NCBI GenBank assembly: GCA_013297825.1
Contig: JAAFIN010000147.1
Span: forward strand, 1-12,746
From: Cytophagales bacterium
GTDB lineage: Bacteria > Bacteroidota > Bacteroidia > Cytophagales > Microscillaceae
Direction of reading: 5' to 3'
DNA: 12,746 bases
Position numbers and translations under genes: made by a program. Below are positions 1 through 6,081 of the stretch, piece after piece (the first letter of the stretch is position 1; every line of letters starts with the position of its first letter). The notes beneath the pieces were generated by a model. That model searched no databases and had not been told where the DNA came from. It was given only the letters and a program-made list of their open reading frames with translations.

Positions 1-1012
1 CTAACAACATTCCCAAACCTCCGCCCAAAGTCGCACCAGCAACTACCGCCCCAAATATTTCCAAAGGGTGAGCTTTTACGCTTTGCGAAAAAATAATAGG
101 TTGCACCAAAACACTATCCAACGTAATTGCAAGCACAAAAGCAGGCAACAAATGCCCCAAAGCTACCCCAAAATCCCACAAAGTACGTGCTTCTTGTGTG
201 TCTGTTGAAAGCGTAACCACACTCGCAAACACAAAACCAATTCCAACACCTAAATACGGAATAAGATTAAAAACCGCCACAAATATCGCAATCGTAAAGG
301 CATATTTTACCCCAAAAATACTTAACCCAATCGCCAACACCACAAAGAAAATGCCTATTTGCATCATCAAACCCAACAAATAACTACGCAATAATACTTC
401 TATTTTGTACAAAGCAGTAACTACTACCTCAAAATACGCATTGGGAATTACTGCTAAAAATTGCCTTCGCAAAAGATTTTTTTCATACAAAAGCATAAAT
501 GTCAAGAAAAAAACCGCACTCGCATACACCAATACCGAACCTGTAACAGACAAAATATTTTGTAAAATATGACTAAAATCCAAACTTTTTACAAATTGGG
601 TACTTAATACTGTAAGTTCATTGAGCAAAAAACCTGCTTTGCGATTAGGATAAACATTTTTTATCAAAAAATTTTCTATGGAAGATAATGGATTTTGGAA
701 AGCATTTATCACATCTTGGTAATTGATTTTTTGTAAAATAATTGCTTGTTCGCTGATAAGTGGCACTAACATTCCCACAAAAAACGCAGGCAACAACACC
801 AACACCACCAAACTTATAATTACCGCAAGCATACGAGGAATTTTTACACCAAAAATGCTGTGCCTTACCAAAAATTCGGTTAAAGGTCGCAAAATAGATG
901 TAATAAATGCAGATAATAATAAATATGTGAATAAACTTTGAAAATAATAAAATCCAAAACCTATTGCCAAAAAAATCAAAAATATCGTAATTGTACGCTT
1001 TGAAGGCAACAT
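1..1012 (-). CDS. AI-2E family transporter (UPF0118/PerM-like permease); the C-terminal end runs off the window start, so the CDS is partial
   Basis: I translated the minus strand by hand from the ATG (reverse complement of 1010-1012) to position 2. This gives 337 aa with no stop: MLPSKRTITIFLIFLAIGFGFYYFQSLFTYLLLSAFITSILRPL...AVFNLIPYLGVGIGFVFASVV...LEIFGAVVAGATLGGGLGMLL. It is a multi-helix hydrophobic protein with the characteristic NLIPY(L/I)G motif of AI-2E transporters. It is absent from the ORF track only because its stop codon lies outside the window. Confidence 0.75.
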   Translation of the reverse strand, partial: MLPSKRTITIFLIFLAIGFGFYYFQSLFTYLLLSAFITSILRPLTEFLVRHSIFGVKIPRMLAVIISLVVLVLLPAFFVGMLVPLISEQAIILQKINYQDVINAFQNPLSSIENFLIKNVYPNRKAGFLLNELTVLSTQFVKSLDFSHILQNILSVTGSVLVYASAVFFLTFMLLYEKNLLRRQFLAVIPNAYFEVVVTALYKIEVLLRSYLLGLMMQIGIFFVVLAIGLSIFGVKYAFTIAIFVAVFNLIPYLGVGIGFVFASVVTLSTDTQEARTLWDFGVALGHLLPAFVLAITLDSVLVQPIIFSQSVKAHPLEIFGAVVAGATLGGGLGMLL

Positions 1013-1046: not shown

Positions 1047-1620
1047 TTAAAAATTCTCCCAATAAGATTTAAAATTAGGATAATATTTTTCTAATGCAGT
1101 TTTGATTTCTTTTTTTAAAGCAAAAAATTCATTTTTGAAATCTTTAAAATCAAAAGTAATTTTATTTTCAGAAATATTTTTATCTACTAAATATATTTTA
1201 TCATTTTCACACAAAAATTCTAAATTAAAATTTTGGTGCATACTTTTGATATTAAATACTTGTTTTTGTTGTTTTTCTAATTTTTCTAATAAAAATTCTA
1301 ATTGCACAACAAGATAAATATATTTTATCATTTTCACACAAAAATTCTAAATTAAAATTTTGGTGCATACTTTTGATATTAAATACTTGTTTTTGTTGTT
1401 TTTCTAATTTTTCTAATAAAAATTCTAATTGCACAACAAGATAAAAAACTTCTGCATTTTTGATTTCAATTTTTTTCTCTGGATTTTGAATTTCCTGAAT
1501 AATTAGATTGCTGTATGCTAATTCTGTGGAAAAGCTATCACTATCCAAATCATTTGGGTCTATGTCTTGGTTTTCATTAGCCCAAATTTCTGCATCAAAT
1601 TCAAAAGTAAATATTTTCAT
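1047..1620 (-). pseudogene. Hypothetical protein gene (ancestral product about 148 aa) split by a perfect 127-bp tandem duplication that introduces a +1 frameshift. The ORF-track entries 1252..1620 and 1047..1337 are its two halves.
   Basis: Both listed ORFs share the identical 44-aa block YLVVQLEFLLEKLEKQQKQVFNIKSMHQNFNLEFLCENDKIYL. The 5' ORF runs into garbage (SCCAIRIFIRK...) straight after the block, while the 3' ORF continues sensibly (VDKNISENKITFDFKDFKNEFFALKKEIKTALEKYYPNFKSYWENF). The two frames differ by 1 nt, and 127 mod 3 = 1. Removing one repeat copy restores a single 447-bp ORF. I recognise no known domain. Confidence 0.6.
1188..1441. repeat. Perfect direct tandem duplication, 2 x 127 bp (copy 1 about 1188-1314, copy 2 about 1315-1441; boundaries ambiguous by about 5 bp)
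   Basis: A direct read shows 1191-1313 and 1318-1440 are identical base for base (atatattttatcattttcacacaaaaattctaaattaaaattttggtgcatacttttgatattaaatacttgtttttgttgtttttctaatttttctaataaaaattctaattgcacaacaag). The offset is exactly 127 bp. Confidence 0.85.
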
Positions 1621-1625
1621 AAAAA

Positions 1626-1683
1626 GGTTTAAAGTTTAAGGTTCAAAGTTCAAGGTTTAAGGTTCAAAGTTTAAGGTTTAAAA
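1626..1683 (+). repeat. Array of about 8 tandem RGTTYAA heptamers (ggtttaa agtttaa ggttcaa agttcaa ggtttaa ggttcaa agtttaa ggtttaa). It forms the left arm of the composite repeat element.
   Basis: Read directly from the sequence. The array abuts the ATG (1620) of the minus-strand gene at 1252..1620. Confidence 0.8.
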
Positions 1684-1700
1684 TTTAGTATGAGAATTTT

Positions 1701-2054
1701 ACTAAGTAATAAATAAATTTTAATAAATAGAAGATTTATTTTACTAAATACTAAATAAATTTTAATAAATAGAATATTTATTTTATTAAATAATAAACAA
1801 ATTCTACTAAATAGAAGATTTATTTTATTAAATAATAAATAAATTTTAATAAATAGAATATTTATTTTACTAAATAATAAACAAATTTTAATAAATAGAA
1901 TATTTATTTTATTAAATAATAAACAAATTCTACTAAATAGAAGATTTATTTTATTAAATAATAAATAAATTTTAATAAATAGAATATTTATTTTACTAAA
2001 TAATAAATAAATTTTAATAAATAGAAGATTTATTTTATTAAATAATAAATAAGT
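1701..2054. repeat. Non-coding tandem array of a 42-bp unit, about 8.4 copies, with a 126-bp (3-unit) higher-order duplication
   Basis: The anchor 'aaatagaa' recurs at 1725, 1767, 1809, 1851, 1893, 1935, 1977 and 2019, a period of exactly 42 bp. The unit consensus is aYtaaataataaaYaaattYtaMtaaatagaaKatttatttt. Units 3-4-5 (1785-1910) are near-identical to units 6-7-8 (1911-2036). Each unit carries a small hairpin (aataaat-agaag-atttatt). The array is full of TAA/TAG stops, so it is non-coding. Confidence 0.85.
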
Positions 2055-2100
2055 TTTAAACTTTGAACCTTAAACCTTAAACCTTGAACCTTAAACTTTC
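2051..2100 (-). repeat. Heptamer array in inverted orientation (TTRAACY x about 6). It forms the right arm of the composite repeat element and is an imperfect inverted repeat of 1626..1683.
   Basis: The reverse complement of 2051-2100 is gaa agtttaa ggttcaa ggtttaa ggtttaa ggttcaa agtttaa aactt. These are the same heptamer types as the left arm, in opposite orientation. The array abuts the stop codon (2100-2102) of lpxC/fabZ. Confidence 0.75.
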
Positions 2101-3491
2101 TAAGATTTCCTCACAATACTTGCAGAAAGCACCGCTTCACACACAAGTCCGCCACGCACATACGCCTCGCCTTTCATTTTGGCAATACCTCTGCGAATAG
2201 GATACAACAATTCACATTGAAAAGTAATAGTATCACCAGGTTGCACCATTTTTTTAAATCTACATTCATCAATAGAAAGCAAATATGCCCAATAATTTTC
2301 AGGGTCAGGCACCGTACTAAGCACCAAAATCCCCCCTGTTTGAGCCATTGCTTCTATTTGCAACACACCAGGCATTACAGGATTATTTGGGAAATGCCCC
2401 ATAAAAAAAGGCTCATTGATGGTTACATTTTTGATGCCTGCCACGCTTGTATCGTCCAAATGATAAATTCTATCCAACAATGCAAATGGGTATCTGTGTG
2501 GAAGAATATTAGCAATGTGCTTCACGTCCATCAAAATAGGCATATTTGGGTTATAATCAGGAATACGTTTTTTGCTTTCAAGAAGCATAGCTTGTCTGAT
2601 TTTTTTGGCAAGACCAACATTTGCAGCGTGTCCAGGACGAATTCCCATAATTTGGGCTTTTAGTGGTTTTCCTACAAGTGCAAGGTCGCCAATCACATCA
2701 AGGAGTTTGTGGCGAGCAGGTTCATTTTTAAATCTAAGCGTAATATTGCTTAAAGTACCTTCTTTGTCAATGGTAATTTTTGGTTTGCCCATTAGTTTAG
2801 CAAGTCGGTCAAGTTCTTCTTCTGGGAGGATTTTATCCACAATTACAATGGCATTATCCACATCACCACCTTTTATAAGATTAGCATTAAAAAGTGCTTC
2901 CAATTCGTGCAGAAACACAAAAGTACGACAATTCGCAATTTCATTTCTAAATTCTGAAATATGGCTAATGCTTGCGTGTTGGTTATTTACGATATTTGAA
3001 TTATAATCTACCATTACCACCACACGATAATCATTGAGAGGCATTGCTGAAATTTCTACGCCTCTTGCTTGGTCAGTAAATACAATATTTTCTTTTACTT
3101 CATAATAAATTCTTAAAGCATCTTGTTCTTGCAATCCTACACTTTCCAATGCTTCCACAAACATAATAGAACTTCCGTCCATAATAGGTGGTTCTGCTCC
3201 ATCAATTTGAATAAGCAAATTATCAATTCCCAATCCTACCAATGCAGCAAGCGTATGCTCTACAGTATGTACTCTTGCACCATTTTGTTCTATGGTCGTA
3301 CCACGTGAAGTATCCACTACATTGTCCGCAAGGGCATCAATAATGGGCTGATTAGGTAAATCCACCCTTTGAAACTTGTAACCGTGATTAGGAGGTGCAG
3401 GCACAAAAGTCATAGTAGTTAATGCCCCAGTATGAAGTCCTACACCTGCTACTTTTACGGATTGCTGAATGGTACATTGTTTGTGGCTCAT
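2100..3491 (-). CDS. lpxC/fabZ: Bifunctional UDP-3-O-acyl-N-acetylglucosamine deacetylase / 3-hydroxyacyl-ACP dehydratase (LpxC/FabZ fusion, as is typical of Bacteroidota)
   Basis: The ORF is 463 aa. The N-terminal about 300 aa are LpxC-like ([27 protein letters not shown]..., [10 protein letters not shown]..., zinc-deacetylase fold motifs). The C-terminal about 150 aa are FabZ, carrying the hallmark [13 protein letters not shown] and [23 protein letters not shown] motifs. Confidence 0.9.
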
Positions 3492-3561
3492 AATTTATTT
3501 AAGAATTAGTTTTTTTTATAAAAAAACGAATTTATGTAAAATCAAATGTTGTGATTATTTG

Positions 3562-3594
3562 AAACCTATAAGGTTTTAAAAACCTTATAGGTTT
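3562..3594. promoter_or_regulatory. Perfect 33-bp palindrome (16-bp arms around a single central A) in the lpxC/fabZ upstream region. It is a candidate operator for a dimeric regulator.
   Basis: aaacctataaggtttt a aaaaccttataggttt. The arms are exact reverse complements. It lies about 70-100 bp upstream of the lpxC/fabZ ATG at 3491. It has no clean flanking T-run, so it is not a classical terminator. Confidence 0.4.
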
Positions 3595-3696
3595 ATAACG
3601 CTGAAAATTATTATTTTTTTGTGCAAAATTCCATTTTTAAAACACAAAAAAAAACTTTTTTTAAAAAATTAGCAAAATTTTATGAAACTTTTAAAC

Positions 3697-3768
3697 TTTA
3701 AAACCTTGAACTTTTGAGCTTTTTGAACTTTTGAACCTTTGAGCTTTTTGAGCTTTTGAGCTTTTAAA
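3697..3768 (-). repeat. Degenerate array of CTTTTGAR / TTGAACY units. It belongs to the same heptamer family in inverted orientation and overlaps the stop codon of the OMP gene.
   Basis: aaccttgaa cttttgag ctttttgaa cttttgaac ctttgagc tttttgag cttttgag cttttaaaac. The reverse complement gives (C)TCAAAAG / GTTCAAG units, as in the arrays at 1626 and 11457. Confidence 0.5.
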
Positions 3769-4525
3769 ACCCATAAAACGCCCCTAATTGCAATCCAAGC
3801 ACAATCGCACCAGCTTTTTTGTCAGGTACCCAAATTGTGTGTGCTTTTAAACTTAAATCTGCTGAAAATCTTTTTGAAAATTGATATGCACAACCTGCGC
3901 CAGGTGCAGCACCATAATCCACAGAATTAGAATTAAGGCTCAATGTGCTTGTGGCTAATGCAGCTTGCAATGGTTGAACATTACCAGGAATTCCTGTTCC
4001 TTGTATTTCGTAGTATTTTGCAATCAATTTACCAATTTTTATATCAATATTATCACTTCTACGCACATACACACCAAAATCCCAAGAAACGTAAGGACGA
4101 ATTTTTTTATTTTTTAAGATACTAAATTCTACGCCCATATTGATAGGATAAAAATCTACATTTGGCACTTTTATTTGGTCACTTTCAGGTGATGCTGCAT
4201 TGTAAAGGTCTAAAATTACGATTGTACCTTCACTTATCCCCAACGTTTTAGCGTATTCACCCAAATTTTCGCCTGCTCTACCAAAAGCAAGATATTGCAA
4301 AGATGTAGTAATTGTCCAGCGTGATTGTTCGCTTGTATTTTCGTCTATTTTTTTAGGAATGGTATATTTGCTTGTAACACCAAAACCATAACCGTTTTTG
4401 TTGATAGTTCCAAAATCACCTGTTGGAATTGCATAAGAGGGCATCAATCCAATACGAAAGTTTTGGGCAAAAGTGAAATTAGGATTTAAAAAAAAAAATA
4501 AATTAAAACGTATATTTTGGGGCAT
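3764..4525 (-). CDS. Outer-membrane beta-barrel protein (OmpA/OmpW-like beta-barrel fold, function unknown)
   Basis: The ORF is 253 aa. It has a weak N-terminal signal (MPQNIRFNLFFFLNPNFTFA|Q), alternating hydrophobic beta-strand patterning throughout, and the C-terminal aromatic residue typical of OMP beta-barrels (…LQLGAFYGF). Confidence 0.5.
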   Translation of the reverse strand: MPQNIRFNLFFFLNPNFTFAQNFRIGLMPSYAIPTGDFGTINKNGYGFGVTSKYTIPKKIDENTSEQSRWTITTSLQYLAFGRAGENLGEYAKTLGISEGTIVILDLYNAASPESDQIKVPNVDFYPINMGVEFSILKNKKIRPYVSWDFGVYVRRSDNIDIKIGKLIAKYYEIQGTGIPGNVQPLQAALATSTLSLNSNSVDYGAAPGAGCAYQFSKRFSADLSLKAHTIWVPDKKAGAIVLGLQLGAFYGF

Positions 4526-5799: not shown

Positions 5800-6036
5800 T
5801 TTTTTTTATAAAAAGTTGTATAAAATTTTTAGTGATTTAACATTGCAAACCTACATATTTATTTTTGATTATTTAAAAACTTTTTACCAAATGCCATTTT
5901 GAATTGATGAAATGTCATTTTTAATAAACAAAAGTGTTAAAATCATTTTTTTAAAAATTATTTTTTTATTAAAAAAAAAACCTGTATTTTTAGAAAGATT
6001 TTATAAATCAAAAGGTAATTAAATACCCTAATTTTT

Positions 6037-6078
6037 AATTTCTCATTCTTAATTCCTAATTCTTAATTCTTAATTATT
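6037..6078 (+). repeat. Six tandem AATTCYT heptamers ending 4 bp before the MVP start codon
   Basis: aatttct cattctt aattcct aattctt aattctt aattatt, then tact ATG. The period of exactly 7 was verified by the positions of 'aattc' at 6051, 6058 and 6065. Confidence 0.7.
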
Positions 6079-6081
6079 ACT

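Follow-up and report, generated by a model that had tools for sequence, protein, structure and literature searches.

The 480-bp spacer downstream of the lpxC/fabZ gene is probably a stack of tandem repeats that expanded in place, and not a discrete insert; formation of an RNA stem by its transcript is possible. The outer arms of the spacer represent a new sequence within a known class, the polar and often convergent heptamer repeats of bacterial gene boundaries, in the sense of shared genomic behaviour only. The window, i.e. the whole stretch of DNA that was analysed, has a length of 12,746 nt and represents all of NCBI contig JAAFIN010000147.1 (assembly GCA_013297825.1, Cytophagales bacterium). 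As originally predicted, the spacer is wholly repeat-built, non-coding and satellite-like, with two arms and a central 42-bp array. The parts of the spacer and the flanking genes are the following.

1047 to 1620, minus strand: downstream flanking ORF, an orphan, 148 aa after removal of one copy of a 127-bp duplication.
1626 to 1681, plus strand: left arm, eight tandem RGTTYAA heptamers at exact 7-nt spacing, TTRAACY on the gene strand.
1696 to 2059, no strand assigned: AT-rich minisatellite, 42-bp unit in 8.7 copies, 91% matches, 7% G+C.
2056 to 2097, minus strand: right arm, six tandem heptamers, TTRAACY on the plus strand and RGTTYAA on the gene strand.
2100 to 3491, minus strand: upstream flanking gene for bifunctional LpxC/FabZ, 463 aa, with the stop codon TAG at 2100-2102.

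The arms were anticipated correctly. About eight units had been predicted for the left arm, and eight were found, with a degenerate ninth unit that extends the arm to about position 1688. The right arm has the predicted inverted orientation. The placement of the arms at the start and stop codons also agrees with the prediction, with measured gaps of 5 nt (AAAAA) between the left arm and the downstream ATG (1620), and of 2 nt between the right arm and the lpxC/fabZ stop codon. Across 43-50 nt, the two arms are 84-86% complementary. Both have at least about four units, are intergenic, lie within 0-50 bp of a stop or start codon, and follow the strand rule of gene-boundary heptamers. They form a convergent pair between two co-oriented minus-strand ORFs.

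The spacer had been distinguished from a CRISPR array, and rightly so: its units are contiguous, without spacers, and no Cas domains were found among the window ORFs. With respect to coding, the array is open in one frame, which is in phase with lpxC/fabZ, located after two stop codons and devoid of a start codon. For a 42-nt AT-rich unit, the chance of such an open frame is estimated at about 50%. The spacer has no match to Rfam families, and a scan for intrinsic terminators and sigma-70-type promoters identified nothing that exceeds shuffled sequences. Repeated promoter-like matches of the form TTAAAA-N16-TAAAAT are merely the unit sequence of the array. The Bacteroidetes -7 motif TAnnTTTG is absent from both strands of the spacer, which is uninformative, since only 3 of the 11 window genes have it, at 45-54 nt upstream. 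An oriC was ruled out, as a DnaA-box cluster is absent from the spacer and adjoining sequence, and integron attC sites and REP/BIME elements were set aside by motif order and sequence.

The central array consists of head-to-tail units in the 10-100 bp range of minisatellites, without spacers. The predicted tandem array is real, but the copy number is 8.7 instead of 8.4, and the unit is not made of A and T only, because 26 of the 364 bases (7.1%) are G or C. The 42-mer is a diverged dimer of a 21-mer, and a higher-order period of 126 bp (2.8 copies, 96%) completes a hierarchy of 21, 42 and 126 bp, with array self-identities of 0.68, 0.92 and 0.95 at the respective lags. Successive 126-mers differ at 5 and 6 positions. 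The 126-bp duplication that was taken as a sign of recent expansion is thus present, but the impression of recency may be assembler-shaped. The small hairpin that was thought to be present in each unit does not stand out from chance, with predicted energies of -1.4 to -3.3 kcal/mol (z from -0.64 to +0.12 against shuffles), and it is missing from some unit variants.

Within the window, the JGI metagenomes and IMG/VR, the 42-bp unit is private to this locus. Its pattern occurs eight times in the window, compared to zero expected occurrences, all of them in the array, and a 30-nt degenerate pattern had no match in JGI metagenome contigs or IMG/VR. A looser 22-nt pattern has nine single, non-arrayed AT-rich matches in viral contigs, which were attributed to chance. 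Derivation of the 42-mer from the heptamers was rejected, as the array has no 7-nt periodicity and no likeness to the arm consensus (p = 0.6-0.7). Derivation from the orthologous spacer of a syntenic relative, L211, was not significant either (p = 0.51).

The RGTTYAA family is not confined to the spacer. It is found at three further gene boundaries of the window, always with the same polarity, and a related family is found at another.

3686 to 3770, minus strand: same-family array that runs over the stop codon of ORF 3764-4525, with a TTGAACY/TTGAGCT unit every 8-9 nt and polarity as elsewhere; absent from the orthologous spacer of L211.
6027 to 6081, plus strand: heptamers of a related family, TCTTAAT/TCCTAAT (complement AAGAATT), up to the ATG of a vault-protein-like gene.
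10804 to 10827, plus strand: short same-family array of about two units, directly 3' of the stop codon of an LRR gene.
11459 to 11521, plus strand: same-family array of eight units, spaced by 7-8 nt, that borders on the start of a HAD hydrolase gene, with polarity as in the left arm.

The TTG start codon of the HAD hydrolase lies inside the last unit of the array at 11459-11521, and the family at 6027-6081 is the one that is present at the lpxC/fabZ stop codon in L211. In the window and elsewhere, the polarity of the RGTTYAA family is the same: the G-containing strand is coding after a stop codon, and its complement is coding before a start codon. The metagenome sample of the family comprised 120 loci, in Bacteroidota and Acidobacteriota (Pyrinomonadaceae) hosts. 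At these loci, long-ORF boundaries lie on the 3' side of TTRAACY in 41 cases and on the other side in 10 (p = 1.5e-5). All 15 inverted pairs have the convergent order RGTTYAA...TTRAACY, none the reverse, and their loops span 5-415 nt. Such pairs are found between groES and groEL, atpD and atpC, and gcvPA and gcvPB. The loop contents of different pairs are unrelated to one another, and one loop (L140) holds the gene for a 23S rRNA intervening-sequence protein (PF05635, E = 4.5e-35). Many of the metagenome arrays are single and unpaired. Literature string searches for RGTTYAA-type heptamer arrays returned nothing relevant.

The only close relative found is L211, which has a 95% identical LpxC/FabZ, the same OMP gene upstream and the same MKIFT... 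ORF downstream. Its orthologous spacer is only 100 nt long and contains (GAATTAA)x4 overlapping the lpxC/fabZ stop codon, but no second arm and no 42-bp array. It is thus a different 100-nt sequence, and not a clean empty site, so that its replacement by inserted DNA is formally conceivable. The spacer upstream of lpxC/fabZ is 76% identical between the window and L211, and the latter lacks the heptamer array and a 33-nt palindrome that are present in the window. Heptamer arrays therefore turn over fast, with unit, length and presence differing between genomes that share 95%-identical LpxC/FabZ. Among GTDB species representatives, the nearest (L002, 90%) has synteny limited to lpxC/fabZ, and in the next (L003, 79%) lpxA follows immediately. 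The exact-protein look-up with LpxC/FabZ led to one 1.5-kb Logan contig only, and those with the vault-like protein, the HAD hydrolase and the 122-aa piece of the downstream ORF to zero matches.

We infer that slippage during replication multiplied short motifs where genes end, and that slippage or unequal recombination amplified an AT-rich segment between them, latest in three-unit blocks. The 42-bp unit, traceable neither to the heptamers nor to the L211 spacer, would presumably also have arisen in place. Two arrays that each obey the polarity rule in one spacer are automatically inverted with respect to each other. In agreement with this, the complementarity of the arms at variable positions equals that of shuffled independent arrays (p = 0.50). 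Strict polarity and the 15:0 pair orientation are not explained by purely neutral slippage, and hint at a directional mechanism or a function.

Expansion in place would be compatible with a function of the resulting RNA. If polymerase reads through from lpxC/fabZ, the arms may pair into a duplex of about 44 bp, which would enclose some 380 nt of AU-rich sequence as a loop and draw the stop and start codons close to each other. A duplex of this kind could block 3' exonucleases or be cut by RNase III. It is conceivable, though doubtful, that the arms have been kept for this duplex as a target of RNase III, a stabiliser of the 3' end or a clamp for translational coupling in the read-through transcript, with the AT-rich array as a tolerated loop. 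In folding predictions for the whole spacer (-120 kcal/mol, z = -11.9 against shuffles), a 44-bp arm-arm stem is present in both the minimum-energy and the centroid folds. The arms directly adjoin the stop and start codons, the groES-groEL, atpD-atpC and gcvPA-gcvPB pairs lie inside operons that are normally co-transcribed, and the intervening-sequence protein gene in the L140 loop also fits an RNA-level role. In Xanthomonas, most related heptamer repeats are transcribed (PMC4692102), and hairpins of other repeat families are RNase III substrates or have a stabilising effect on transcripts (PMC3049150). However, no signature of selection for arm pairing was found in covariation and strand-folding tests. 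Arm-arm covariation is not beyond chance, and the sense RNA folds better than the antisense RNA in only 4 of 10 pairs. For groES-groEL (L132), the sense fold is much weaker (-12.2 compared to -36.7 kcal/mol). The many single arrays, the lack of a second arm at the same locus in L211 and the lack of an Rfam match also argue against a maintained RNA structure.

The assembly deserves scrutiny in view of a perfect 127-bp tandem duplication at 1188-1441 (1188-1314 identical to 1315-1441), about 180 bp from the spacer. It splits the downstream ORF into pieces of 122 aa and 96 aa as assembled, and removal of one copy restores an intact ORF of 148 aa, which starts with the ATG at 1620 and has its opening five codons kept in L211. 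The duplication is likely an artefact of assembly with k=127, being typical of two contigs joined without trimming of the k=127 overlap. Within the 42-bp array, exact repeats reach at most 125 nt (at lag 126), just below k-1, and the copy number in the assembly may thus be inexact. One could thus suspect that the arms are real, but that array length, copy number and 126-bp order are products of the de Bruijn assembly. An independent Logan contig indeed ends within the right arm. We consider this rather unlikely, since 126-mers differ at 5-6 positions and 42-mers by about 8%, so that the path through the array should be resolvable, and since similar arrays, among them a 42-bp higher-order repeat, are present in contigs that are unrelated, for example L132. 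At the lpxC/fabZ end, the independent Logan assembly contig L001 is identical to the window from 2070 to 3590, and bears out the stop codon followed by the first heptamers. The identical lpxC/fabZ is contained in sample SRR9948921.

The spacer had originally been read as MITE-like or satellite-like. As a composite of MITE or BOX type, it would have the heptamer arrays as terminal inverted repeats around an expandable inner module, and would be mobilised in trans. The layout does recall pneumococcal BOX, boxA-(boxB)n-boxC (PMC3049150), and BrickBuilt of P. gingivalis, a 23-nt minisatellite within a MITE (PMC4596501). The strict orientation of all 15 inverted pairs towards the interior is as expected of element termini, and the composite is present in the window but absent in L211. 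Nevertheless, this origin is very unlikely. The orthologous spacer of L211 lacks the whole composite, which comes close to the refuting case originally set out, and carries another array at this stop codon instead of an empty site. A search for target-site duplications found no direct repeat of at least 5 nt in the 36-38 nt outside each arm. A search for further copies had been proposed, and the 42-bp module was found in no other place searched. The arrays also occur singly at other boundaries of the window, and their complementarity is at chance level for such arrays. Finally, the loops of other pairs are mutually unrelated, and no transposase was found among the window ORFs.

The omega repressor of plasmid pSM19035 binds 7-bp heptad operators. 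That the contiguous heptads are likewise a protein-binding array at the DNA level, cooperatively occupied, with the 21/42-bp AT-rich repeats as bent or easily melted DNA that affects transcription, would fit a polarity that is tied to the inner and outer sides of the spacer and not to the direction of transcription, the exclusively convergent pairs, unit lengths of 21 and 42 bp (two and four whole helical turns) and the use of one heptamer in two phyla, but it is highly improbable, as no candidate binding protein was identified, the arrays sit on start and stop codons and not at promoter distance, TAnnTTTG is lacking, and the unit differs between close relatives at one site, which argues against a fixed recognition sequence.

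The GGGAATC repeats of Xanthomonas and the GGGGAYT repeats of Nostoc share one polarity, form convergent pairs, lie near stop codons with a preference for aligned ORFs, and are transcribed (Rehm 2015, PMC4692102). As in these families, the arms and the 120 metagenome loci are tandem 7-nt repeats, mostly of at least about four units, in intergenic regions between co-oriented ORFs. [quoted passage not shown] Convergent inverted pairs able to form stem-loops are frequent in both cases, and housekeeping genes, including groES, are adjoined. The differences concern the hosts, which are Bacteroidota and Acidobacteriota here, the window pair, which encloses a 364-bp minisatellite and not a short loop, and the sequence itself. 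RGTTYAA has at most two adjacent G residues and cannot form a G-quadruplex, so that the published G-quadruplex rationale is inapplicable. A non-G-quadruplex heptamer thus obeys the rules of polarity, convergence and proximity to stop and start codons of the G-quadruplex-forming heptamers, in two further phyla and in core operons.

It is tempting to go further, and to regard arrays of the RGTTYAA type, and perhaps all heptamer arrays of bacteria, as a distinct cistron-boundary element that is created or maintained by a directional process or by a trans-acting factor common to different phyla. This is a speculative and probably overly far-reaching view. It builds on arrays that always face into the spacer, on pairs that are convergent only, and on their tolerance in groES-groEL, atpD-atpC and gcvPA-gcvPB. 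If it were correct, the published explanation of polarity would be wrong or incomplete, because the RGTTYAA family cannot form G-quadruplexes. The composite in the window would then be an extreme form, with a loop that was free to inflate into a minisatellite.

The second known relative is the TAACTGA heptamer of Beggiatoaceae, Cyanobacteria and some Bacteroidetes (MacGregor 2015, PMC4679880). Like the arrays described here, TAACTGA arrays lie a few nt upstream of start codons in one orientation, and have a patchy distribution across phyla. In Flexibacter litoralis, a member of the Cytophagales, one reversed array directly follows a stop codon. Between strains, TAACTGA arrays differ by indels in 7-nt steps. 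Unlike in our case, the heptamer is a different one, inverted pairs are rare (one case), and there is no internal minisatellite.

With respect to composite elements, the spacer has an architectural likeness, and only that, to BOX of S. pneumoniae (Croucher et al. 2011, PMC3049150), as the arm stem encloses 8.7 inner units. BOX elements are likewise non-coding, intergenic and modular, with outer modules that pair and a variable number of inner tandem repeats, and an ORF can run through the repeats, as does one open frame here. However, the outer modules of BOX are unique 50-60-nt sequences and not microsatellites, and more than 100 copies with the same modules are present per genome, whereas no second copy was found in the data searched here. 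BrickBuilt of Porphyromonas gingivalis (Klein et al. 2015, PMC4596501) is similar in its Bacteroidota host, its always intergenic location, and its spacer-less minisatellite between leader and tail parts with inverted ends. It differs in being present 19 times per genome, at 49-591 nt from genes, and in its unit of 23 nt, accompanied by defined leader and tail modules. In contrast, the composite described here is a single one that directly adjoins both genes, and its arms are microsatellites. The central array alone resembles an ordinary bacterial VNTR in its head-to-tail 42-bp units with about 8% divergence, its higher-order period, and its presence in one lineage but not in a close relative, but has an unusually high A+T content (93%) and lies between two microsatellite arrays of opposed orientation. 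The result for this locus is thus mainly a correction: the picture of inverted arrays around tandem repeats arises of itself whenever two polar gene-boundary microsatellites share one spacer, and needs no mobile element.

The spacer at 1621-2099, between lpxC/fabZ and the downstream ORF, is built as the original prediction had it: a left arm of heptamers, an array of a 42-bp unit and an inverted right arm. Features of the window (a whole NCBI contig of 12,746 bp, G+C 31%, source a Cytophagales-like Bacteroidota) are listed below.

Repeat features and genes in the window
1188-1314 and 1315-1441: perfect 127-bp tandem duplication, 180 bp left of the spacer
1626-1681: left arm of eight RGTTYAA units, spaced exactly 7 nt apart
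1696-2059: array of the 42-bp unit, 8.7 copies, 91% matches (Tandem Repeats Finder)
2056-2097: right arm, six reverse-complement units
2100-3491, minus strand: bifunctional LpxC/FabZ (Pfam LpxC and FabA)
3562-3594: perfect 33-nt palindrome AAACCTATAAGGTTT-TAA-AAACCTTATAGGTTT in the spacer upstream of lpxC/fabZ
3686-3770: RGTTYAA-family array overlapping the stop of the ORF at 3764-4525
6027-6081: related heptamer array, TCTTAAT/TCCTAAT, reaching the ATG of the vault-like gene
6082-8571, plus strand: bacterial major vault protein homologue, 829 aa (Pfam MVP_shoulder 1.4e-31, Vault_3, SPFH)
10804-10827: RGTTYAA-family array immediately following the LRR gene stop
11459-11521: RGTTYAA-family array adjoining the HAD hydrolase start, the TTG start codon falling within its last unit
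Genes other than lpxC/fabZ include: AI-2E-type permease, vault-protein-like, LRR protein, HAD hydrolase, T9SS-tailed protein

The ATG at 1620 is at most 5 nt from the left arm, and the TAG at 2100-2102 at most 2 nt from the right arm. Tandem Repeats Finder also describes the central array as 2.8 copies of a 126-bp period (96%). Compared with itself, the array shows an identity of 0.68 at a lag of 21 nt, 0.92 at 42 nt and 0.95 at 126 nt, whereas a lag of 7 nt gives the background value of 0.46. This makes the unit a diverged dimer of a 21-mer, with a higher order of three units and no heptamer substructure. The array had been taken to be AT-only and to form a hairpin in every unit; its G+C content is 7.1%, and the folding of single units cannot be told from that of shuffled controls (z between -0.64 and +0.12). 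A frame in phase with lpxC/fabZ (1621-2102, minus strand) has 132 open codons across the array and would read as a 14-aa hydrophobic repeat (NLLFIKIYLLFNKI...). It comes after two stop codons, has no ATG, GTG or TTG start yielding at least 60 aa, and probably stays open by chance, the unit length being a multiple of three.

A caveat concerns the assembly. The 127-bp duplication breaks one ORF into overlapping ORFs of 122 and 96 aa, and dropping one copy gives an intact 148-aa frame. Because 127 is the largest k in a widely used assembler, the duplication most likely stems from a contig join left untrimmed. Within the central array, exact repeats reach at most 125 nt (lag 126), slightly less than k-1, so that the array is resolvable and its copy number of 8.7 is unreliable to a single unit. 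A separate, independent assembly from Logan matches the window at 2070-3590 without a difference and confirms that the first heptamers follow the stop codon. Among 5.8 billion proteins, the 148-aa downstream ORF has only its own fragments as homologues, and no Pfam family matched it.

The arms are not private to the composite. RGTTYAA-family arrays occur at three other gene boundaries of the window, and in all window cases the coding strand reads RGTTYAA past a stop and TTRAACY ahead of a start. The 33-nt palindrome holds the AAGGTTT/AAACCTT motif of the family. The spacer upstream of the HAD gene is also largely repeat-built, with short tandem repeats at 11522-11640 (about 4 copies of AATCCTGTT, 2.6 of CATTCAA and 2.3 of a 14-mer). 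Cytophagales do not in general carry gene-boundary heptamer arrays, as no heptamer-type array of at least 28 nt was found in 1.03 Mb around lpxC/fabZ from 80 other genomes.

LpxC/FabZ shares 95% identity with a protein from a JGI metagenome (locus L211), 90% with a Cytophagales MAG (L002) and 79% with a further Bacteroidetes MAG (L003). Synteny of L002 with the window ends at lpxC/fabZ; at 7540-7570 it has two TCCTAAT units right ahead of the ATG of a downstream phosphatase-family gene, which match in family and orientation the array before the vault-like gene of the window. In L211 synteny extends to both sides: its upstream gene closes with ...LGLQLGAFYGF as in the window, and the downstream ORF, whose first five codons are kept, begins ATGAAAATATTTAC in both. 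Its spacer between lpxC/fabZ and the ORF is 100 nt long, with four GAATTAA units over the TAA stop followed by unique AT-rich DNA, and contains neither an RGTTYAA arm nor the 42-bp array. GAATTAA differs from the window unit at 2 of 7 positions and agrees with it in phase and orientation. The spacers upstream of lpxC/fabZ are 76% identical where alignable; the window's array past the OMP stop, and the 33-nt palindrome with about 10 flanking nt, have no counterpart in L211. Over a protein divergence of about 5%, arrays at these boundaries thus arise, switch unit and vanish.

Scanning metagenomes for RGTTYAA four times in a row gave at least 120 loci, with G+C from 32 to 70%. Among the matches listed, the TTRAACY reading has a long ORF boundary no more than 25 nt away on its 3' side in 41 cases and on the opposite side in 10 (p = 1.5e-5), with starts limited to ATG or GTG and stops within the array permitted. 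For partnerless arrays among these matches, the counts are 31 versus 13. A few telomere-like (AAACCCT)n loci at contig ends (L086, 1-737; L113, 1-90 and 896-1122), which contain TTTAAGG variants, were left out; they are presumably of eukaryotic origin and have no relation to the bacterial arrays. All 15 inverted pairs among the matches listed run RGTTYAA...TTRAACY and none is reversed; their loops span 5-415 nt.

Inverted pairs in metagenome loci
L132: groES-groEL
L096: atpD-atpC
L122: gcvPA-gcvPB
L162: upstream of dnaX
L140 (415-878): complete gene for a 23S rRNA intervening-sequence protein (PF05635, E = 4.5e-35) within the 415-nt loop

By cluster names, L122, L162 and the further locus L082 belong to Acidobacteriota (Pyrinomonadaceae) and L132 to Bacteroidota. 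L132 has both heptamer families of the window (1-310 and 11916-12021); its AAGAATT-family arrays form an inverted AATTAAG/CTTAATT pair, and in its left arm six heptamers make up a higher-order repeat of 42 bp. Two loci (L088, 2144-2206; L149, 1947-2016) share a 599-codon ORF ending 16 nt from the array and appear to be one locus from related strains. Their first arrays have 4 and 5 units, a variation by a 7-nt step.

The spacer is tandem-repeat-built and evolutionarily young, and is best filed as gene-boundary heptamer repeats plus a private minisatellite. As the arms obey the class-wide polarity rule, they are inverted automatically. They probably arose by slippage at motifs beside the stop and start codons, and the central array from an AT-rich segment by slippage or unequal exchange; the 42-bp unit was traced neither to the heptamers nor to the L211 spacer. 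The arms are 84-86% complementary, and the predicted gene-strand RNA fold has 44 consecutive arm-arm pairs at -120 kcal/mol (shuffles -65.7 +/- 4.6). A read-through transcript would form a long stem closing the loop. A structural RNA role of this stem is unlikely and finds no support in the sequence: no arm covariation was found, the sense strand folds better in only 4 of 10 pairs, and in the L132 pair the sense fold is much worse. Neither covariation nor sense-strand folding preference revealed selection on the stem. At the variable R/Y positions the arms match in 10 of 12 cases, no more than expected from shuffled free-register arrays (mean 0.80; p = 0.50), a result that also speaks against a mobile element. 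The spacer is repeat-only, non-coding and not a CRISPR array, as originally predicted, and the accompanying proposal of a MITE-like mobile element is unsupported by the refuting condition set out with it: the L211 spacer lacks the composite, no target-site duplication surrounds it, and the 42-bp unit has no further copy in the window (the part of this genome covered by the search), JGI metagenome contigs or IMG/VR.

The boundary behaviour of the RGTTYAA arrays is already known from other heptamers. GGGAATC in Xanthomonas and GGGGA(T/C)T in Nostoc form arrays of about four units that prefer aligned ORFs, with 70-75 convergent inverted pairs per genome and the majority of arrays transcribed (Rehm et al., PMC4692102), and TAACTGA arrays sit a few nt ahead of start codons (MacGregor, PMC4679880). 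Unlike the heptamers of Rehm et al., the RGTTYAA of the window is unable to form a G-quadruplex, and G4 formation therefore cannot account for the polarity. What is new here is a G4-incapable heptamer that follows the same polarity: the sequence is new, and the kind is known.
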